From the IMG/VR virus record IMGVR_UViG_2778261395_000003: DNA of 12,090 nt, one strand, 5' to 3'. This document shows positions 584-10,455 of this stretch, one piece after another. The translations under genes were made by a program, and so were the position numbers. Origin of the DNA: a virus (lineage: Duplodnaviria; Heunggongvirae; Uroviricota; Caudoviricetes). Within the stretch, counting starts at the first letter, position 1. Every line of letters begins with the position of its first letter. The notes beneath the pieces are model-generated. The model worked only from the letters and a program-made list of their open reading frames with translations. It had not been told where the DNA came from and did not search any database.

Positions 584-1597
584 TTACTCTACTGTGGACA
601 CTGTGTGGACACTCTCGACCTCAGTACCACCTCTTAGCGGATTAAGAGAAATGGCGTCCTGAAGGTACTCTGGCGCAAAATGAGCGTAAACCATAGTTTG
701 CTCAATCCGCGTGTGACCTAGTATCCGTTGTAGCGTGATAATACTTCCTCCATTAATCATGAAATGAGTGGCAAAGCTGTGCCTTAGTGCATGTGTAGCT
801 TGCCCCATTGGCAAATCCGGTTTTATTGCTTTCATTGTTCGTCTGAAGCGAGGGTAATCAGCATCAGGGAATAAAAAACCTCGTTTGTTATCCGCGATCA
901 TTTTGGCAACAGCCTCTGAGATCGGGACGGTGCGTGGTTTGTTTGTTTTCGTTTTAACAAACGTGACGCGGTTATGGATGATATTTTCTGCTTTCAAACG
1001 AGCAGCTTCTCCCCAACGTGCTCCAGTACTCAGGCAAAGAATCGCAATCTTTTTGTTGTCGCCGTCAAGAGCAGCAAGCAGTAAGGCAATTTCTTCCTGC
1101 GTGAGATAGCCTGTGTCTGGTTTTTCCTCCTTAAGCCTTTTTGTCCCTCTGATAGGGTGCTCACCAAAGAATAACTCCGCTTCAATCAGGGCTGTAAACA
1201 TGCCGCTAATACATGTTAAATCACGATTGATACTCGAAGGTTTAATACCCTGACTTCTTCGGGTGGCGCAGTACTGGCTGATAAGCGATTTCGTAATTTG
1301 AAATGCGCATGGGTCATTCGTTATTTTTGTGAAGATTTCAATTTTTCCAAGATTAGATTTCCCATGCTCTTCGTGTTTACCCTTTAAATCCCACCAGATC
1401 TGTGTCAGCTCCGACAGACGTCGCTTGTCTGTTGGTTTTGATAGCCATTCTTTATTGTGGTGGTTGTACAACGTGTATTTCTCGAAAGCGACAGCTTCGC
1501 TTTTCTTATCAAACTTCCTACGGATGCGTTTTCCATTACGTCCAGTAGGGCGGATGTCCACTTCATATCGACCATCATCGAGTTTTTTGATTGCCAT
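584..1597 (-). CDS. int: Tyrosine integrase, P2 Int-like (337 aa)
   Basis: 337 aa, the size of P2 Int. C-terminal catalytic region contains R...HxLRHSFAT...LGH...Y (ATHALRHSFATHF, ILGHTRIEQTMVYAHF). GGAGGG Shine-Dalgarno upstream of the ATG. Sits adjacent to the att core and is co-oriented with the C repressor gene. Confidence 0.9.
   Translation of the reverse strand: MAIKKLDDGRYEVDIRPTGRNGKRIRRKFDKKSEAVAFEKYTLYNHHNKEWLSKPTDKRRLSELTQIWWDLKGKHEEHGKSNLGKIEIFTKITNDPCAFQITKSLISQYCATRRSQGIKPSSINRDLTCISGMFTALIEAELFFGEHPIRGTKRLKEEKPDTGYLTQEEIALLLAALDGDNKKIAILCLSTGARWGEAARLKAENIIHNRVTFVKTKTNKPRTVPISEAVAKMIADNKRGFLFPDADYPRFRRTMKAIKPDLPMGQATHALRHSFATHFMINGGSIITLQRILGHTRIEQTMVYAHFAPEYLQDAISLNPLRGGTEVESVHTVSTVE
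593..611. promoter_or_regulatory. Putative Int arm-type binding sites (P-prime arm): two direct TGTGGACA repeats 11 bp apart, inside the 3' end of int
   Basis: TGTGGACA at 593-600 and 604-611. A similar pair with the same spacing sits in the opposite arm at 10499-10517. The motif matches my recollection of the P2 Int arm-site consensus. Confidence 0.45.
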
Positions 1598-1712: not shown

Positions 1713-2012
1713 TTAACCAGTCTTTTGACCGGAGTGGGGCGACGTTGTTTCGTTTTGCCCAAAGTGTGCGAGAGCGGGCGCAATTTGCCCGGACTCAGGA
1801 GCGATCTGATTGGTCATGAACCATAAAGTGTATTTGGTGAATTGTGGGGTCTGCAGGATGTTCATCATGACATCTGTTGGAGGTGTTGAACGACCACTTT
1901 CATAGTAACTCAGCGTGCCATACGGAACCCCTGTTAAATCAGCAAGTTGTTGTCTGCTCAAATACTCTGATTTTCGCATTAAGACTATCTTCTCGCTTAT
2001 CGTGTTTGACAT
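1713..2012 (-). CDS. C: Immunity repressor, P2 C-like (99 aa)
   Basis: 99 aa, the size of P2 C. Divergent from cox across a 114-bp switch region carrying direct repeats. The N-terminal segment QQLADLTGVPYGTLSYYESG looks like a helix-turn-helix. Confidence 0.85.
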   Translation of the reverse strand: MSNTISEKIVLMRKSEYLSRQQLADLTGVPYGTLSYYESGRSTPPTDVMMNILQTPQFTKYTLWFMTNQIAPESGQIAPALAHFGQNETTSPHSGQKTG

Positions 2013-2126: not shown

Positions 2127-2402
2127 ATGAGCAAGCAAGTAACACTCATGACTGATGCGATTCCTTATCAGGAGTTCGCAAAACTAATAGGAAAATCGAC
2201 AGGAGCGGTTCGTCGGATGATCGATAAAGGAAAGCTGCCTGTAATTGATATGACCGATCCACAATCAGCTTCAGGTCGTGCAGGTGAATATTGGGTATAC
2301 CTTCCGGCATGGAATAACGGACTAAAACTGGCTTATGAAAGCCGCCCTAAAGAGATTCGTGACGGCTGGTTGATGTGGTTAGGTCTCGGTGAACCACGTT
2401 AA
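2127..2402 (+). CDS. cox: Cox-like excisionase / Pc repressor (91 aa)
   Basis: 91 aa, the size of P2 Cox. First gene of the rightward early operon, with a GAGG ribosome-binding site. Confidence 0.8.
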   Translation: MSKQVTLMTDAIPYQEFAKLIGKSTGAVRRMIDKGKLPVIDMTDPQSASGRAGEYWVYLPAWNNGLKLAYESRPKEIRDGWLMWLGLGEPR

Positions 2403-2412
2403 GGAGAACCGT

Positions 2413-2583
2413 ATGAATGAGCCTCGTTGTATTGCTCAGTTACTGCGTAACGAAAGCCCCAGGGCGATTGACTTCACCATCACCCACGGTAAGGGGCGTA
2501 AGGGAATCATTATCCGCACCAAAAAACAGAGTCCGTTAAAAAAGGCTCTGACCTTTCTGAAAAGCCGGAGGGTATGGAAATGA
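2413..2583 (+). CDS. Small basic hypothetical protein in the P2 orf78 position (56 aa)
   Basis: ATG at 2413 is preceded by AAGGAG (2401-2406) at ideal spacing. The longer track ORF starting at 2389 has no ribosome-binding site. Lys/Arg-rich. Confidence 0.55.
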   Translation: MNEPRCIAQLLRNESPRAIDFTITHGKGRKGIIIRTKKQSPLKKALTFLKSRRVWK

Positions 2584-3080
2584 CAGTGATGACGCTCAAT
2601 CTCGTTGAAAAACAGCCAGCAGCTATGCGCCGGATAATTGGCAAGCATCTTGCCGTCCCTCGCTGGCAGGATACATGTGATTATTATAATCAGATGATGG
2701 AGCGCGAACGGCTAACGGTTTGCTTTCATGCACAGTTAAAACAGCGTCACGCAACGATGCGTTTTGAAGAAATGAACGACGTCGAACGTGAACGACTGGT
2801 TTGTGCAATTGATGAATTGCGTGGCGCATTCTCAAAACGCCGTCAGGTTGGTGCAAGTGAGTATGCATATATTAGTTTTTTAACAGTCAGTCAGCGTCGC
2901 ACTTTATTTATGCACGCACGACTGACTGAAAAAGAATTCAACCAGCCATACTGGCGAATTAATGAAGAATCATGTTACTGGCGTGATGCTTTGTTCCGTG
3001 CATTACGTGAATTATTCAGCATGTTTGAGTATGCACCGACAATTCTGACGTCGGTAAAACCAGAGCAATATCTGCATTAA
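2580..3080 (+). CDS. B: Replication protein B-like (166 aa from ATG 2580)
   Basis: Position between cox and A. 166 aa from the ATG at 2580, the size of P2 B. GGAGG at 2566-2570 favours 2580 over 2574. Confidence 0.75.
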   Translation: MTVMTLNLVEKQPAAMRRIIGKHLAVPRWQDTCDYYNQMMERERLTVCFHAQLKQRHATMRFEEMNDVERERLVCAIDELRGAFSKRRQVGASEYAYISFLTVSQRRTLFMHARLTEKEFNQPYWRINEESCYWRDALFRALRELFSMFEYAPTILTSVKPEQYLH

Positions 3081-3143
3081 ATAATTAACCAGAGTTTTTA
3101 ACGCACTTAATCGTGCGGGGCTTCTTTTTGCCTGGAGAAAGTC

Positions 3144-3368
3144 ATGCATACAGTTTCTGAAAATCAGTGCGGTATATACGCATTACTGCTGCAACAGGCC
3201 AGAACCGAAGCACAGGCCGACGCTGCGACGCGCTTTTCTTCTCATCTTGACGCCATGATTCGCCACATCACAAAGGCGGAGTTATCCCGCGTGGAGATAG
3301 TCGAGCTGCTCAGTCAGGAGTCGGAAAAATTTCACAATATCGGATTGTCTCGCGGGGAGGTGCTTTGA
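3144..3368 (+). CDS. Hypothetical early protein (74 aa), P2 orf80 position
   Basis: ORF with GGAGAAA ribosome-binding site. First of four tightly packed, overlapping small ORFs between B and A. Confidence 0.55.
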
Positions 3369-3670
3369 TGTCCTGTTCTCGTTCAGTTGTATTACTGAAT
3401 AACGCCTTAAAAATCGCCGTTATGAAAAATGGCGATTTATCTCTTATTCAACTTGGTCTTGATAAAGAAAAACGCGAAATAACTGAGTCTGTTATCGCGA
3501 TTTATCAGAACGAATTAAATCTCCTGTCTGATGTGGTCAATTTACTTGTTAAACGCGCTGTATTTCACAAGCAAATCTCCTCCGTGGATGAACTGACGAA
3601 GTTAACGACAGAAATTGCCAGCTATTGCGCTGATGAATTTAAGAAACTGAACGACAAAAGGAACTGGTAA
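3368..3670 (+). CDS. Hypothetical early protein (100 aa), P2 orf81 position
   Basis: ATG at 3368 overlaps the upstream TGA (TGATG), with GGGGAGG 9 nt upstream. The track's TTG start at 3365 is less likely. Confidence 0.55.
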   Translation: MSCSRSVVLLNNALKIAVMKNGDLSLIQLGLDKEKREITESVIAIYQNELNLLSDVVNLLVKRAVFHKQISSVDELTKLTTEIASYCADEFKKLNDKRNW

Positions 3671-3894
3671 TGCCGGACAACGTAGATTTCATTCAGGAAC
3701 AACAGGCTGAATTACTGGAGCGCCAGATTAACGCGGCAAGGGTAAAACATAGCGGTGTTTCTGCGCTGGTTTGCGAAGAGTGTGACGCGCTAATACCTGC
3801 TGCCCGTCGTGCGGCTTATCCGTCAGCCACGCGTTGTGTTTCCTGTCAGTCAGTCTTTGAAGCAAAAAACAAACATTACCGGAGAACGGCATGA
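3670..3894 (+). CDS. DksA/TraR-type C4 zinc-finger protein (74 aa), P2 orf82 position
   Basis: CEEC-x17-CVSC (C-x2-C-x17-C-x2-C) is the spacing of the zf-dksA/traR family. Start overlaps the upstream stop (TAATG). Confidence 0.6.
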   Translation: MPDNVDFIQEQQAELLERQINAARVKHSGVSALVCEECDALIPAARRAAYPSATRCVSCQSVFEAKNKHYRRTA

Positions 3895-4166
3895 GTATTC
3901 GTATTGAAATTGGCGAACGTTATGTCGTTACCAGTGACAGCTTTCAGTTTATTCTCCACGAGAAAAAGAGAGCGGAAAGCGGTAAAAACGCCGGTCAGGA
4001 ATGGCTGGCGGTGGTTGGTTATTACCCGAAATTAAGCCAGCTCGTTTCCGGCCTGATGCATCACGATATTCTGACCGGAAGCGCAAAGTCTTTTGCTGAT
4101 TTAAACGCGCAGGTTGAGCAACTCAGCAGGCGTTGTTCAGAGGCTTTGGGCTCATATGGCCGTTAA
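3891..4166 (+). CDS. Hypothetical early protein (91 aa), P2 orf83 position
   Basis: ATGA overlap with the upstream gene. Its end overlaps the A start, indicating translational coupling. Confidence 0.55.
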   Translation: MSIRIEIGERYVVTSDSFQFILHEKKRAESGKNAGQEWLAVVGYYPKLSQLVSGLMHHDILTGSAKSFADLNAQVEQLSRRCSEALGSYGR

Positions 4167-6423
4167 AGCCTCCGGGCGTTTTGTCCCTCCGTCAGCATTT
4201 GCCGCAGGCATCGGTAAGACGTTTACCGGTGCTTATGCATGGAACGCGCCACGCGAGGCTGTCGGGCGCGAAAGACCCCTTACACGTGACGAGATGCGTC
4301 AGGTGCAAGGTGTTTTATCCACGATTAACCGCCTGCCTTACTTTTTGCGCTCGCTGTTTACTTCACGCTATGACTACATCCGGCGCAATAAAAGCCCGGT
4401 GCACGGGTTTTATTTCCTCACATCCACTTTTCAGCGTCGTTTATGGCCGCGCATTGAGCGTGTGAATCAGCGCCATGAAATGAACACCGACGCGTCGTTG
4501 CTGTTTCTGGCAGAGCGTGACCACTATGCGCGCCTGCCGGGAATGAATGACAAGGAGCTGAAAAAGTTTGCTGCCCGTATCTCATCGCAGCTATTCATGA
4601 TGTATGAGGAACTCTGCGATGCCTGGGTGGATGCGCATGGCGAAAAAGAATCACTGTTTACGGATGAGGCGCAGGCGCATCTGTATGGTCATGTTGCTGG
4701 CGCTGCGCGTGCTTTCAATATTTCTCCACTTTTCTGGAAAAAATACCGTAAAGGACAGATGACCACGAGGCAGGCATATTCTGCCATTGCCCGTCTGTTT
4801 AACGATGAGTGGTGGATTAATCAGCTTAAAGGCCAGCGTATGCGCTGGCATGAGGCATTACTGATTGCTGTCGGGGAGGTGAATAAAGACCGTTCTCCTT
4901 ATGCCAGTAAACATGCCATTCGTGATGTACGTGCACGCCGCCAGGCAAATCTGGAGTTTCTTAAATCGTGTGATCTCGAAAACAAGGAAACCGGCGAACG
5001 CATTGACCTTATCAGTAAGGTGATGGGAAGCATTTCTAATCCTGAAATTCGCCGTATGGAACTGATGAACACCATCGCCGGTATTGAGCGTTACGCCGCC
5101 GCAGAGGGTGATGTGGGGATGTTTATCACGCTGACCACGCCGTCAAAGTATCACCCGACACGTCAGGTCAGAAAAGGCGAAAGTAAAACCGTCCAGCTAA
5201 ATCACGGCTGGAACGATGAGGCATTTAATCCAAAGGATGCGCAGCGTTATCTCTGCCGTATCTGGAGCCTGATACGCACGGCATTCAAGGATAATGATTT
5301 ACAGGCCTACGGTTTGCGTGTTGTTGAACCACACCACGACGGAACGCCGCACTGGCATATGATGCTTTTTTGTAATCCACGCCAGCGTAACCAGATTATT
5401 GAAATCATGCGTCGCTATGCGCTCAAAGAGGATGGCGACGAAAGAGGAGCCGCGCGAAACCGTTTTCAGGCAAAACATCTTAACCGGGGCGGTGCTGCGG
5501 GGTATATCGCAAAATACATCTCAAAAAACATCGATGGCTATGCACTGGATGGTCAGCTCGATAATGATACCGGCAGGCCGCTGAAAGATACTGCTGCGGC
5601 TGTTACCGCATGGGCGTCAACGTGGCGAATTCCGCAATTTAAAACGATTGGCCTGCCGACAATGGGGGCTTACCGTGAACTACGCAAATTGCCTCGCGGC
5701 GTCAGTATTGCTGATGAGTTTGACGAACGCGTCGAGGCTGCTCGCGCTGCCGCAGACAGTGGTGATTTTGCGTTGTATATCAGCGCGCAGGGTGGGGCAA
5801 ATGTCCCGCGCGATTGTCAGACTGTCAGGGTTGCCCGTAGCCCGTCGGATGACGTTAACGAGTACGAGGAAGAAGTCGAGAGAGTGGTCGGCATTTACGC
5901 GCCGCATCTCGGCGCGCGTCATATTCATATCACCAGAACGACGGACTGGCGCATTGTGCCGAAAGTTCCGGTCGTTGAGCCTTTGACTTTAAAAAGCGGC
6001 ATCGCCGCGCCTCGGAGTCCTGTCAATAACTGTGGAAAGGTCACCGGTTGTGATACTTCGTTACCGGCTCCCACACCTTCTGAGCACGCCGCAGCAGTGC
6101 TTAATCTGGTTGATGACGGTGTTATCGAATGGAATGACCCGGAGGTTGTGAGGGCGCTCAGGGGCGCATTAAAACACGGCCTGAGAACGCCAAATCGTCA
6201 GCAAAGAAACGGAAGCTCGTTAAAACCACATGAAATTGCACCATCGGCCAGACTGACCCGGTCGGAAAGAATGCAAATTACCCGTATCCGCGTTGACCTT
6301 GCTCAGAACGGTATCAGGCCGCAGCGATGGGAGCTTGAGGCGTTGGCGCGCGGGGCAACAGTAATTTATGACGGTGAGCGGTTTAGTTATGCTGTAAAAG
6401 ACGATTGGGTGATGTTTTCTTAA
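4156..6423 (+). CDS. A: Rolling-circle replication initiator, P2 gpA / phiX174 gpA superfamily
   Basis: HUH motif H-W-H-M-M-L at 5350-5367. Paired catalytic tyrosines in Y-I-A-K-Y-I-S-K (Y codons at 5503-5505 and 5515-5517), resembling the phiX174 A active site. Start placed at ATG 4156; the track's TTG at 4114 has no spacer after its Shine-Dalgarno-like sequence. Confidence 0.9.
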   Translation: MAVKASGRFVPPSAFAAGIGKTFTGAYAWNAPREAVGRERPLTRDEMRQVQGVLSTINRLPYFLRSLFTSRYDYIRRNKSPVHGFYFLTSTFQRRLWPRIERVNQRHEMNTDASLLFLAERDHYARLPGMNDKELKKFAARISSQLFMMYEELCDAWVDAHGEKESLFTDEAQAHLYGHVAGAARAFNISPLFWKKYRKGQMTTRQAYSAIARLFNDEWWINQLKGQRMRWHEALLIAVGEVNKDRSPYASKHAIRDVRARRQANLEFLKSCDLENKETGERIDLISKVMGSISNPEIRRMELMNTIAGIERYAAAEGDVGMFITLTTPSKYHPTRQVRKGESKTVQLNHGWNDEAFNPKDAQRYLCRIWSLIRTAFKDNDLQAYGLRVVEPHHDGTPHWHMMLFCNPRQRNQIIEIMRRYALKEDGDERGAARNRFQAKHLNRGGAAGYIAKYISKNIDGYALDGQLDNDTGRPLKDTAAAVTAWASTWRIPQFKTIGLPTMGAYRELRKLPRGVSIADEFDERVEAARAAADSGDFALYISAQGGANVPRDCQTVRVARSPSDDVNEYEEEVERVVGIYAPHLGARHIHITRTTDWRIVPKVPVVEPLTLKSGIAAPRSPVNNCGKVTGCDTSLPAPTPSEHAAAVLNLVDDGVIEWNDPEVVRALRGALKHGLRTPNRQQRNGSSLKPHEIAPSARLTRSERMQITRIRVDLAQNGIRPQRWELEALARGATVIYDGERFSYAVKDDWVMFS

Positions 6424-6506
6424 ACTGATGGCATCATGATACATTAACAAATCTGAAGCAATGCTTTAGTAGTCGTGCATTAATAACTTATAAGGAATTA
6501 TTATCG

Positions 6507-7829
6507 ATGAGTGCGTTAAGGGATGAAGTATCTATGAAGGTTGCGTTCTCTAATGGCATGATAAACAAATTATGCAAAAGTTTTTTTTATAGTCATGGTA
6601 AGGAGCAGCCTTGTATCCAAGTCGGTAAAGCATTAGAAGATTTTGTTTTTTGGCTTGCATATAATGATGAGGAGATTGCAAAATGTGCTAGTAGGTTATT
6701 AAAAGCATATGGCCCCCAATTAGGTATAAGTGACCTTCACAATGCGAAAAGATTATTGTTAGGTTTTTGTTCTGAAGCCTTCAATCGCATTGATGCTGAT
6801 TTTCTGTCGCTTAATCCTGATAAGATTTGTGTTGATGATATTATAACGCAAGTTCATAGAAAAAATCTTAGTGAGATGTTTAAGTATTATATACTTTCAC
6901 GAATAAAATCCTGTCCGTATATTTATAATCTTGGGTGTGCTGGCTTTGATGGGAAGCTTGAGCTTAGAGAAAATTTATTTTTATATGGCCCGGGGCTAGG
7001 GGTGGAATTAATTTCTGATATTAAAGACAAAACTGACATCAAGGTTCCTGTTGATTTTTATGATGATGAATATATGCGGCATAAACCAATTGGGAAATAT
7101 TTTCGACAGTCAAAATCCTGCTTGGTGGTGGCATATGCTTCATCAGAGGATAAAGCGGTGAAAATGTTTGATAGTTTGTTTGGAGCTTTATGTCTTGCGG
7201 TTGATAATCCTTTTGCGATTAATCGAGTTGCTGTTAATAATCTAGTTGAGTCTTTTGGTGTCGGGAAATATCATGAAAGTGAGTTTCGGGTGAATATTCC
7301 GTCTGTATATAATTTAAATATAACGGATTCAGCCTTGGCGATACTTACAAAAATACTTTCATCACCTGATAAAAGGATGTTGTCTGCTCTTTCCTTTATA
7401 GCGCACGGGTGGAGGGATGACAAACGTGAAAGGTTTTTGAATCAATTTATAGCATTGGATGCTATGTATGGAACCAATAATGGTAATAAAAATTCAATTA
7501 TTGGCGGTGTTTGCAGAGATGCGGCGAAAATTATTGATATTGATTCAAAAATAGGAATAATCTATGAGCTTAGGTGTAAGTTTGTTCATGGAGATATTTC
7601 ATCGTTATCTGATAATGATAGCTATCGAAAGTTTATTGATAGCTATGGCGTGGACCCTATTGTTTCTCTTTTTGAAATTCTTAAAGAATGCGTCCTTAAT
7701 TATAATGGTACTTACAAAACGCCAAAAGATGTTGGAAAGGCAGATAGGTCTATTTGCGTTCCTGCTGAGTTGCTTCCAGCGGTTGAGAGGATGATAGCGG
7801 AATACAGTGGAGTTAAAAAAACAAACTAA
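6507..7829 (+). CDS. AT-rich orphan cargo protein (440 aa); candidate defence or abortive-infection effector with an R-x4-H motif
   Basis: Long ORF with AAGGAA ribosome-binding site 9 nt upstream. GC is about 25-35 percent against about 55 percent in the adjacent A gene. Occupies the A-to-cos slot. No Walker A motif. C-terminal YELRCKFVHGD contains R-x4-H (R codon 7572-7574, H codon 7587-7589). Confidence 0.75.
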   Translation: MSALRDEVSMKVAFSNGMINKLCKSFFYSHGKEQPCIQVGKALEDFVFWLAYNDEEIAKCASRLLKAYGPQLGISDLHNAKRLLLGFCSEAFNRIDADFLSLNPDKICVDDIITQVHRKNLSEMFKYYILSRIKSCPYIYNLGCAGFDGKLELRENLFLYGPGLGVELISDIKDKTDIKVPVDFYDDEYMRHKPIGKYFRQSKSCLVVAYASSEDKAVKMFDSLFGALCLAVDNPFAINRVAVNNLVESFGVGKYHESEFRVNIPSVYNLNITDSALAILTKILSSPDKRMLSALSFIAHGWRDDKRERFLNQFIALDAMYGTNNGNKNSIIGGVCRDAAKIIDIDSKIGIIYELRCKFVHGDISSLSDNDSYRKFIDSYGVDPIVSLFEILKECVLNYNGTYKTPKDVGKADRSICVPAELLPAVERMIAEYSGVKKTN

Positions 7830-7970
7830 AGATGTTCTTTTTAGCCTCGCCTGCATTAGGTGCATAAATTTGCATTCATTTTCAAATATATCTTTTGACA
7901 GCGAGCACCAGAACAGGCGCTTGCCGGGGGGATGATGCACCTGCATTAAAACCGCCCCATGAAGCGGGCG

Positions 7971-7989
7971 GGCGAGGCGGGGAAAGCAC
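7971..7989. other. cos site: 19-nt P2/P4-type cohesive-end sequence GGCGAGGCGGGGAAAGCAC
   Basis: Exact match to the P2/P4 cohesive-end sequence as I recall it. It sits in a GC-rich non-coding island (about 7895-8040) between two AT-rich blocks, at the position expected between the A side and Q. Confidence 0.65.
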
Positions 7990-8122
7990 TGCGCGCAATG
8001 ATGTCAGTTTGAGGGCATCAGGCATGGGGACACTACACAGTTTCATTTTTGTTATTAATTGTTTATCATATAAGTGTTTGTTTTTTGAACGGCATGTCGT
8101 GTGCTATATGGAGTGAATAGAA

Positions 8123-8392
8123 GTGACTAAATTTGACAAAAAAAAAGCAATTTCTATTTTAACAGAAAAAAAAGCCTTGCTCCCATGTCATCGGTGTGGA
8201 AATTCAAAGTTCATCATTTTGGATGGCATATCATCACTTCCATTAATGGAAAATATGGAAATGATTGGTAGTATTGTTGTTGGCGGAATGAATGCTCCTG
8301 TATTACATGTGGCATGTGAGAATTGTGGTGCAGTTACTTCACATTTGCTTGGGGCACTTGGTTTAATGCCGGAGATTAAATCAAATGACTAA
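8123..8392 (+). CDS. Small zinc-ribbon protein (89 aa), first gene of a two-gene cargo module
   Basis: GTG start with GGAG 8 nt upstream. Two C-x2-C pairs (CHRCG and CENCG) about 40 residues apart. AT-rich. Overlaps the next gene by 8 nt. Confidence 0.6.
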   Translation: MTKFDKKKAISILTEKKALLPCHRCGNSKFIILDGISSLPLMENMEMIGSIVVGGMNAPVLHVACENCGAVTSHLLGALGLMPEIKSND

Positions 8393-8855
8393 GGGTGTTT
8401 TTTTCTCTGATGAAGGTAGTGGTAAAAAAAGTGCTGTCTTGCATGGGGCGCAGGTTACAATAAACCCTGATTCGCAATTTACAAAAAAGATAATTAGGCA
8501 GACTGAGGTTGATGTTATTGTGATAAGTGATGATAAACTTCATATAATTTTGACGAATTGCTTATCTAAAATTGCATCATTAAACCGCTGGTCAACACCT
8601 TTGGGTATTTTAATTACCTTGGCGGTAACTATGTTAACCACAAATTTTAAGAATTTTATTCTTCAGGATTCTGTGTGGGAGGCTGTTTTCTGGATGCTTA
8701 TTTTTTTTAATATTATCTGGTTGGTGAAAAACATTCCATATAGACACTTATTTTTAACTGTTTGTCATTCTATAGGGGTTCGTAAAGATAAAAAAAGAAT
8801 TAGTGATGTATACCACATTATAGATATAATTAAACAAGGTGATACACGCTTTTGA
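8385..8855 (+). CDS. Small membrane protein (156 aa) with two predicted transmembrane helices, second gene of the cargo module
   Basis: Two hydrophobic stretches (WSTPLGILITLAVTMLTT and AVFWMLIFFNIIWLV) after a roughly 65-aa soluble N-terminal region. ATG overlaps the upstream gene's end. AT-rich. Confidence 0.65.
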   Translation: MTKGVFFSDEGSGKKSAVLHGAQVTINPDSQFTKKIIRQTEVDVIVISDDKLHIILTNCLSKIASLNRWSTPLGILITLAVTMLTTNFKNFILQDSVWEAVFWMLIFFNIIWLVKNIPYRHLFLTVCHSIGVRKDKKRISDVYHIIDIIKQGDTRF

Positions 8856-8888
8856 TTTAATATCAATATTTGATTGAGTATATAATAA

Positions 8889-8911
8889 AGCCGCCTGAGT
8901 TTATGGCGGCT
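8889..8911 (-). terminator. Hairpin downstream of the Q remnant, possible intrinsic terminator
   Basis: 7-bp GC-rich stem AGCCGCC/GGCGGCT with a 9-nt loop. On the minus strand it is followed by UUUAUUAUAU, immediately 3' of the Q stop. Confidence 0.4.
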
Positions 8912-8931
8912 AATATAGGGTGTGTGCTAAG

Positions 8932-9936
8932 TCATAATGTGTATTTGTTGAATCTAATTATTTCTTCGCCAACCCATTCATTAAGGGCAATAAAGCGAGA
9001 TTGAATAGGAGTAAGCTCATTGCGGACAAAGACCTTTGCCACTTTCTCAATATCACCCAGCGACCCGACGTTCTCCGGCTTGCCGCCCATCAACTGAAAG
9101 GGGATGCGGTGCGCGTCCAGCAGGTCAGCGGCGCTGGCTTTTTTGATATTAAAAAAATCGTCCTTCGTTGCCACTTCACTGAGCGGGATAATTTTAATGC
9201 CGTCGGCTTTCCCTTGCGGGGCATAGAGAAACAAATTTTTAAAGTTGTTGCGGCCTTTCGACTTCACCATGTTTTCGCGAAGCATTTCGATATCGTTGCG
9301 ATCCTGCACGGCATCGGTGACATACATGATGTATCCGGCATGAGCGCCGTTTTCGTAATACTTGCGGCGGAACAGCGTGGCCGACTCATTCAGCCAGGCA
9401 GAGTTAAGGGCGCTGAGATATTCCGGCAGGCCGTACAGCTCCTGATTGATATCCGGCTCCAGCAGGTGAAACACGGAGCCGGGCGCGAAGGCTGTCGGCT
9501 CGTTGAAGGACGGCACCCACCAGTAAACATCCTCCTCCACGCCACGGCGGGTATATTTTGCCGGTGAGGTTTCCAGTCTGATGACCTTACCGGTGGTGCT
9601 GTAACGCTTTTCCAGAAACGCATTACCGAACACCAGAAAATCCAGCACAAAGCGGCTGAAATCCTGCTGGGAAAGCCACGGATGCGGGATAAATGTCGAG
9701 GCCAGAATATTGCGTTTGACGTAAATCGGCGAGCTGTGATGCACGGCAGCACGCAGGCTTTTCGCCAGACCGGTAAAGCGAAACCGGTCACGCAGAAGAA
9801 AGCGCCAAAAGTACCGGAAGCGCGCGAAGGTGAATACATGGCCGGTGAGGCTGACAACGTTTTTGCCCTGACCACGGTATATGCCACGAAAGCGCAGGCC
9901 ATGCGCGCCGCTCAGGCGAAGTGGGACAAACTGCAA
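8932..9936 (-). pseudogene. Q: Portal protein gpQ-like remnant, N-terminally truncated and fused to antisense D sequence
   Basis: The C-terminal roughly 250 aa look like genuine protein. The first roughly 80 codons are R/F-rich low-complexity sequence lying antisense to the D-fragment frame, so the true 5' part of Q is probably missing. Confidence 0.7.
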
Positions 9937-10155
9937 CGGGGCGTCGCGGAGTTCTCCATCAGCCTGGCTACCGGTCGGGCTGATATTTACACGGAAACAC
10001 CGGTTAAAGTGTCAGGCTTTAAGCGCGTCATAGACGAGCAGGACTGGACAATCACTAAGGTGACACATTTTCTGAATAATAGCGGCTTCACGACGTCCTT
10101 AGAGCTTGAGGTCAGGCTTTCTGATGTGGAGTACGAAACAGAAGATTATGAGTGA
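9682..10155 (+). pseudogene. D: 3' fragment of tail gene D (gpD C-terminal region); yegZ-like remnant
   Basis: The C-terminal sequence (VSGFKRVIDEQDWTITKVTHFLNNSGFTTSLELEV) matches the conserved end of P2 gpD-family proteins as I recall it. The ORF is far too short for a full D (about 387 aa) and sits directly upstream of ogr. The first in-frame ATG within the clearly D-like part is at 9838. Confidence 0.7.
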
Positions 10156-10236: not shown

Positions 10237-10455
10237 ATGTTTCATTGTCCTTTATGCCAGCATGCCGCACATGCGCGTACAAGCCGCTATATCACTGACA
10301 CGACAAAAGAGCGTTATCACCAGTGTCAGAACGTGAATTGCAGCGCCACGTTCATCACCTATGAGTCGGTACAGAGATACATCGTGAAGCCGGGAGAAGT
10401 CCACGCCGTAAGGCCGCACCCGTTGCCGTCAGGGCAGCAAATTATGTGGATGTAA
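10237..10455 (+). CDS. ogrK: Ogr-type zinc-finger late-gene transcription activator (72 aa)
   Basis: C-x2-C-x22-C-x4-C (CPLCQ ... CQNVNC) zinc-binding motif. 72 aa from ATG 10237. Last gene before attR and followed by a strong intrinsic terminator. Confidence 0.85.
   Translation: MFHCPLCQHAAHARTSRYITDTTKERYHQCQNVNCSATFITYESVQRYIVKPGEVHAVRPHPLPSGQQIMWM

Follow-up and report, generated by a model that had tools for sequence, protein, structure and literature searches.

A single AT-rich gene, lodged between the replication gene and the cohesive-end site of a P2-like prophage remnant, encodes a protein that is very probably an RNase of the HEPN type, as predicted from its C-terminal domain. The gene is a conserved, selected and mobile single-gene cargo with an intact catalytic motif, and by analogy with characterised systems its product is probably a self-contained, prophage-borne abortive-infection protein directed against phages. 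The candidate was already catalogued in 2022 with the same prediction and bears a HEPN name in RefSeq; the idea is not new, and what we describe is an uncharacterised single-protein HEPN abortive-infection candidate that is sound but unsurprising.

The prophage remnant and its cargo slot

The window, by which we mean the whole stretch of 12,090 nucleotides that was analysed, holds a degenerate P2-like prophage adjoining yegQ. Positions 6400-8950 are 100% identical to E. coli GF4 (NZ_CP172217.1) and the remaining GF4 annotation agrees with the ORFs of the window; the integrase, repressor and early genes below are placed by that annotation together with the window ORFs.

584-1597, minus strand: integrase
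1713-2012, minus strand: C-type repressor
Between the repressor and gpA: cox, B and small early genes
4156..6423, plus strand: gpA replication endonuclease (4156 being the RefSeq start), the left border of the cargo slot
7971..7989, plus strand: 19-nt cohesive end of P2 cos, the right border of the A-to-cos slot
8932-9777, minus strand: portal pseudogene or remnant, abutting the gpD fragment
9682-10155: C-terminal fragment of gpD, running on from the portal pseudogene
10237-10455: ogrK (RefSeq CDS), beside yegQ

Every late gene (capsid, tail, lysis) has gone, and the prophage is a deletion remnant in which the cargo genes and cos are intact. The P2 cohesive end, GGCGAGGCGGGGAAAGCAC, is matched exactly at 7971-7989 and the roughly 30 nt before it match P2 cosR, so that the HEPN gene fills the A-to-cos interval, the position that the preliminary description of this DNA had assigned to it. 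The interval from A to cosR in P2 is occupied by three genes of the opposite strand, namely orf91, tin (253 aa) and old (586 aa). The arrangement in the window is that of the gpA-gpQ hotspot, namely a variable gene 3' of gpA, beside cos, in a P2-like element. It recurs in the intact P2-like prophages of ST131 strain 751 and of Enterobacter, where the gene or its homologue stands alone between gpA and the portal gene, as expected of the single-gene cassette that had been proposed; the Enterobacter copy, a homologue of 62% identity, is AT-rich too.

The slot is shared with P2 Old and Tin, both of which have a role in phage exclusion. Relative to gpA, however, the HEPN gene lies on the strand opposite to theirs, and its product is devoid of a Walker A motif (not even GK[ST] occurs) and of an ATPase, whereas the OLD family combines an ABC-type ATPase carrying Walker A with a TOPRIM nuclease. 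The preliminary description had set the protein apart from Old for want of Walker A and from Tin on account of length (253 aa for P2 Tin versus 440), and BLASTP agrees: the best E value is 6.1 against Tin and 0.26, over 8 residues, against Old, and identity with either is rejected.

The open reading frame

The features that first drew attention to the gene were a long, clean ORF, a good ribosome-binding site and a GC content well below that of the P2 backbone, and all three hold up.

6492..6496, plus strand: Shine–Dalgarno-like AAGGA, 10 nt 5' of the ATG, by direct reading
6507..7829 including the stop, plus strand: CDS of the 440-aa HEPN-domain protein (RefSeq WP_097296988.1), with an ATG start
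6534..6536, plus strand: alternative in-frame ATG (M10), the start point in most homologues

The longest stop-free run amounts to 440 codons. When the gene's own bases were shuffled 1000 times, it averaged 62 codons and never exceeded 129; so long a run is not due to chance. The GC content of the gene is 35.6% (GC3 28%) versus 52.4% (GC3 52%) for gpA, and the sliding GC profile falls from about 0.54 to about 0.35 at 6400. The start codon is ambiguous. Both candidate ATGs (6507 and 6534) are preceded by a purine-rich stretch some 10 nt upstream, residues 1-7 are disordered in the structural model (pLDDT below 50) and, since most homologues start at M10, the actual length may be 431 aa. A scan for promoters and terminators returned site counts equal to those of shuffled sequences, with no clear sigma-70 promoter and none directly upstream of the gene. 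Comparison with the Enterobacter allele yields a dN/dS of about 0.16 at a dS of 1.78, which is near saturation, and points to purifying selection.

A predicted C-terminal HEPN domain with an R-x4-H motif

The protein divides into two parts, with the following landmarks.

6507..7322, plus strand: N-terminal mixed α/β region, residues 1-272, a fold without a recognisable match and the proposed sensor or regulatory domain
7326..7706, plus strand: predicted Apea-like HEPN domain, residues ~274-400, delimited from the model and by its layout relative to Anantharaman 2013
7374..7376, plus strand: codon of R290, at least 90% conserved in the wider family
7458..7460, plus strand: codon of D318, an acidic residue in proposed helix 2, present in 97% of distant relatives
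7572..7589, plus strand: R356-C-K-F-V-H361, the R-x4-H catalytic motif, followed by G362

HEPN domains are built on a four-helix up-down core; in many of them helices 2 and 3 are separated by an insert and helix 4 is kinked (Anantharaman et al. 2013). The predicted structure follows this plan: the proposed helices are H1 (289-300), H2 (306-321), H3 (345-360) and a kinked last helix H4 (371-398), and an insert helix (328-338) lies between helices 2 and 3. In the model R356 ends helix 345-360 and H361 is the first residue of the next loop, which is the canonical position of the pair in HEPN proteins and the outcome that the preliminary description had anticipated for a HEPN fold. RCKFVH is also the sole R-x4-6-H in the whole protein, and the prominence that had been given to this C-terminal motif is justified by its conservation, R356 and H361 being the most conserved feature of the family. 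In a 60-sequence alignment with a mean column identity of 23% they are the only invariant columns; in 118 distant relatives both residues are present in all 117 that align at these positions, alongside G362 (99%), D318 (97%), G322 (96%) and R290 (90%). Typical HEPN domains have a polar residue (N, D or H) directly after the catalytic arginine and, upstream in helix 2, an acidic residue that is conserved (Anantharaman et al. 2013); here the residue after the arginine is C or S in the homologues, not N, D or H, while the acidic residue is provided by D318. One close homologue (P0026, 392 aa) has a tyrosine in place of the catalytic histidine (KFVYGEI) and may be an inactivated copy or the result of a sequencing error.

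In the structural search that had been suggested as a check, the best match of Foldseek against the PDB is a HEPN protein; at E 1.1 this match is not significant, and nor is any other. AbiA is in the top twelve of the ranked matches behind the HEPN-fold call, and HepT, AbiV and LAS1L appear further down. Searches of the PDB by sequence returned nothing meaningful with either the single sequence or the family profile. The HMMs of Pfam, NCBIfam and PADLOC match neither the whole protein nor either half (hmmscan against Pfam is negative even at E<=10, and no PADLOC family appears at E<=1), and the same holds for 13 relatives run against Pfam and 10 run against PADLOC. PHROGs returns only family 23812, which has no assigned function there. 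The alignment that does connect the protein to a named group was obtained with hhalign against a 461-aa family of the P4 hotspot (UniRef name 'Apea-like HEPN'); it extends over 170 C-terminal columns (E 1.6e-4, probability 50%) with R290, D318, R356, H361 and G362 all in register. The Pfam accession of HEPN_Apea is presumably PF18739. Taken together, a HEPN fold for the C-terminal ~125 residues, with R356 and H361 in canonical position, is well supported, and assignment to the Apea-like subtype is moderately supported.

Homologues, distribution and genomic context

The preliminary description had called the gene an orphan, and this label does not stand: full-length homologues form 26 clusters (44-99% identity), and among 1.84 billion representative proteins 233 match the family profile at E<=1e-3; RefSeq, moreover, names the product 'HEPN domain-containing protein'. 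In E. coli the gene is found at >=99% identity in 46 of 5426 complete genomes (0.85%), always on the chromosome and with the alignment covering >=80% of the gene. The cluster above 90% identity includes sequences from Salmonella enterica and E. albertii; at 44-71% identity, the protein has full-length counterparts in Citrobacter, Enterobacter, Serratia, Vibrio, Shewanella, Pseudoalteromonas and Idiomarina. Relatives in the wider family mostly measure about 400-480 aa and carry varied N-termini before a constant HEPN module. A tblastn search of 50,697 phage records gave no match, which leaves prophages as the only known source of the gene.

A survey of the homologues for defence context, as had been recommended, finds them in prophage cargo slots and in regions that resemble defence islands. 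The Serratia homologue (53% identity) is situated in a P2-like prophage between homologues of baseplate gene V and tail gene S, a position which we take to be that of the non-essential orf30 in P2. The Vibrio homologue (49%) adjoins an HNH gene, and no more than about 5 kb away lie a group II intron reverse transcriptase, a HEPN_RES_NTD1-RES gene and genes for SAVED and DncV-like NTase proteins (a CBASS-like pair). In Pseudoalteromonas the homologue shares an island bordered by an integrase with Schlafen-like and DEAD/ResIII genes, in Idiomarina amid IS21 copies and a gene with an McrB N-terminal domain, and in Shewanella it is solitary amid housekeeping genes. No neighbouring gene is conserved across the ST131/Enterobacter, Serratia, Vibrio, Pseudoalteromonas, Idiomarina and Shewanella loci, and the protein therefore appears to act alone.

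Within Vibrio, three loci (L004 7079-10521, L005 7042-10484 and L006 349-3791) have the same 222-aa protein, which has no assigned function, upstream and a 374-aa HNH_5 protein downstream, followed in two of the three by a short integrase-family gene. These may represent a lineage-specific three-gene module or a single small mobile element.

Previous records of the protein

In the P2-hotspot catalogue of Rousset et al. (2022; PMC9122126, Table S5B) the protein is system #45, 'HEPN_Apea', with the note 'Likely a RNAse'. The system comprises a single gene between gpA and gpQ, is present at 84 of 18,150 loci and received its Pfam label from HHpred/HH-suite (PMC9122126). The listed part of its representative differs from the window protein at two positions (I169L and S372G), and the two are the same protein with no biological difference between them, the earlier record being a catalogue line only. 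System #45 lies outside the set that Rousset et al. cloned; of the eight additional P2-hotspot systems that they did clone, three protected against their 8 phages (PMC9122126). Their construct pFR103, a 'Putative HEPN' from strain S88, was considered as this protein and rejected, its sequence being unrelated. In the literature covered, which leaves Brenes & Laub 2025 aside, there is no report of protection, toxicity or RNase activity for the protein. The DefensePredictor supplements contain neither its sequence nor its accessions, a domain-centric screen makes no mention of HEPN, and a 2026 paper on the P2/P4 hotspots cloned only P4 loci.

Comparison with characterised single-protein HEPN systems

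ApeA acts in abortive infection as a nuclease of tRNA anticodons, and defence is lost when its HEPN arginine is mutated (Gao 2020; Juozapaitis et al., bioRxiv 10.64898/2026.01.26.701840); it is triggered by 5'-phosphorylated deoxydinucleotides and cuts tRNA anticodon loops (bioRxiv 10.64898/2026.01.26.701840). The window protein resembles ApeA in being a single protein that has no partner gene and joins non-catalytic N-terminal domains to a C-terminal, apparently Apea-type HEPN domain. ApeA, however, is large and mainly helical, with N-terminal, Mid and split HEPN_ApeA domains, whereas the window protein has 440 aa and several N-terminal β strands. Comparison of the family profile with Ec4ApeA (9hxm) gives E 3.3 over 49 positions; given this value, the differences in size and architecture and the lack of a PADLOC match, identity with ApeA is rejected.

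DARNA/PD-T7-3 (456 aa) is likewise a single-protein abortive-infection HEPN factor with R-x4-H, and a tRNA anticodon nuclease that is switched on via its own non-catalytic domain; tRNA cleavage is set off by single-stranded DNA that the phage SSB presents (bioRxiv 10.64898/2026.02.22.705581). Its HEPN domain is N-terminal (R117/H122) and its C-terminal sensor is all-helical, Pds5-like and ssDNA-binding, in contrast to the C-terminal HEPN domain of the window protein; on grounds of this reversed domain order and the absence of a PADLOC match, identity is rejected here too. HepS, encoded by the prophage Gifsy-1, aborts infection as a solo HEPN protein; its default state is inactive, and it cuts the anticodon loops of tRNAs (PMC13043305). 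Proteins of the HepS type are stand-alone HEPN domains of <=250 aa without an extra domain (R100/H105) and sense siphovirus tail-tip proteins (PMC13043305). Since the window protein has an extra domain of 270 aa and no detectable sequence similarity to HepS, this identity is also rejected.

Close parallels are two 'HEPN_Apea' families of the P4 hotspot (Rousset Table S1B; #19, 461 aa, and #24, 318 aa), which display the same HEPN signature: a helix with R..(S/R)AL.F, a helix with AL(D/E)xL(F/Y)(G/S), and (I/F)Y.(L/I)R.K..HG. Like the window protein they lie next to cos as the cargo of a P2/P4-type element, and like it they fall outside the set cloned and tested by Rousset (PMC9122126). They differ in their N-terminal regions, which are unrelated (only the last ~170 columns align), and in residing in another element, at the psu-int locus of P4.

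Proposed mechanism and alternative explanations

Drawing on the characterised single-protein HEPN systems ApeA, DARNA/PD-T7-3, HepS and PrrC/RloC, we infer a mechanism in which the lysogen would produce an inactive form of the protein, whose non-catalytic N-terminal domain would sense a phage-derived cue. The HEPN domains of two subunits would then pair to create a composite, metal-independent active site, and this site would cut RNA, most probably tRNA anticodon loops, a substrate chosen purely by analogy. Translation would stop, the cycle of the infecting phage would fail and the lysogen population would be protected by abortive infection. That the protein is specifically a tRNA anticodon nuclease is a tentative suggestion that we would not call likely. 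It is plausible, albeit still short of probable, that the N-terminal ~270 residues form an undescribed sensor domain which couples a new infection cue to an Apea-like HEPN RNase, and that the family is a distinct, unnamed single-gene defence system and not a variant of ApeA, DARNA or HepS. These three exemplify three modes of sensing infection, by small nucleotides, by SSB-bound ssDNA and by tail-tip proteins; the window protein would share their effector logic, and the trigger of its sensor region, which has no detectable relative, could add a fourth. Since lineages of clinical importance, an ST131 strain among them, carry the gene in P2-like prophages, it may affect host range in phage therapy. 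The cassette is short and self-contained and hence easy to test; as the protein is already catalogued and its predicted activity conventional, the gain would be incremental.

Four other explanations deserve consideration. One holds that the protein is a HEPN toxin chiefly engaged in conflict between mobile elements, either in prophage addiction or in interference with P4-type satellites or rival P2-like phages. The gene sits beside cos, the packaging site common to P2 and P4, it has stayed intact in a remnant without any late genes, and hotspot cargo can act against close relatives of P2 (Rousset 2022, PMC9122126). Yet no antitoxin-like partner is conserved beside the gene at the examined loci, and some homologues are located away from P2-like phages, either in chromosomal islands or singly; we regard this explanation as unlikely, if one to be taken seriously.

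Rather less likely is a HEPN-fold protein outside defence, acting in RNA processing or regulation as a form of lysogenic conversion, or binding nucleotides without cleavage. Non-catalytic and housekeeping HEPN domains do exist (Anantharaman et al. 2013), no defence HMM matches the protein, and at about one in four P2 hotspot loci the cargo serves purposes other than defence, partition systems being an example (PMC9122126), so that position by itself is weak evidence. However, HEPN domains that have lost catalysis usually lose R-x4-6-H (Anantharaman et al. 2013), of which both R and H are invariant here, and the patchy spread (0.85% of E. coli genomes), low GC content and mobile contexts are typical of defence cargo.

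That the C-terminal region is not HEPN at all, but a helical bundle resembling it by chance and containing a fortuitous R-x4-H, is very unlikely. Finally, that the gene is a passenger without present function, inert or in decay, is highly improbable: although the window copy belongs to a defective prophage and the promoter scan found none, the dN/dS of about 0.16 (with dS near saturation) suggests purifying selection, different genera keep the ORF at full length, with 44-71% identity and the motif unvaried, and all 46 E. coli copies retain >=99% identity over >=80% of the gene.

Additional observations on the window

Two small ORFs between cos and the portal remnant constitute a second AT-rich cassette, with 33.8% GC and an 8-nt overlap between the ORFs.

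8123-8392, plus strand: first cassette ORF, 89 aa, zinc-ribbon-like because of its two CxxC pairs; its Lar-type match in Pfam is weak (E 0.004)
8385-8855, plus strand: second cassette ORF, 156 aa, with a hydrophobic segment at about residues 96-118; PHROG 32870 (E 1.7e-9)

The cassette is found in 8 of 5426 complete E. coli genomes, jointly with the HEPN gene only in GF4; in ECC-1470 the P2-like prophage is intact and has the cassette after a DUF7380 gene. The cassette is possibly a separate exclusion or defence module. The match of the window to other HEPN-carrying P2-like prophages ends about 10 nt beyond the cos cohesive end (window 7989-8000). Judging from this break just past cos, two cargo modules, A-to-cos and cos-to-portal, seem to assort independently of each other, and cos would be their junction.

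In the GF4 chromosome record, position 1 is where the P2 gpA gene begins. Ten further RefSeq chromosomes have the HEPN gene at identical coordinates (2352-3674, or matching a 2245 offset), and those records therefore probably start at gpA as well. Presumably a genome-rotation tool took gpA for the replication-start gene, which makes this an annotation curiosity and not biology.
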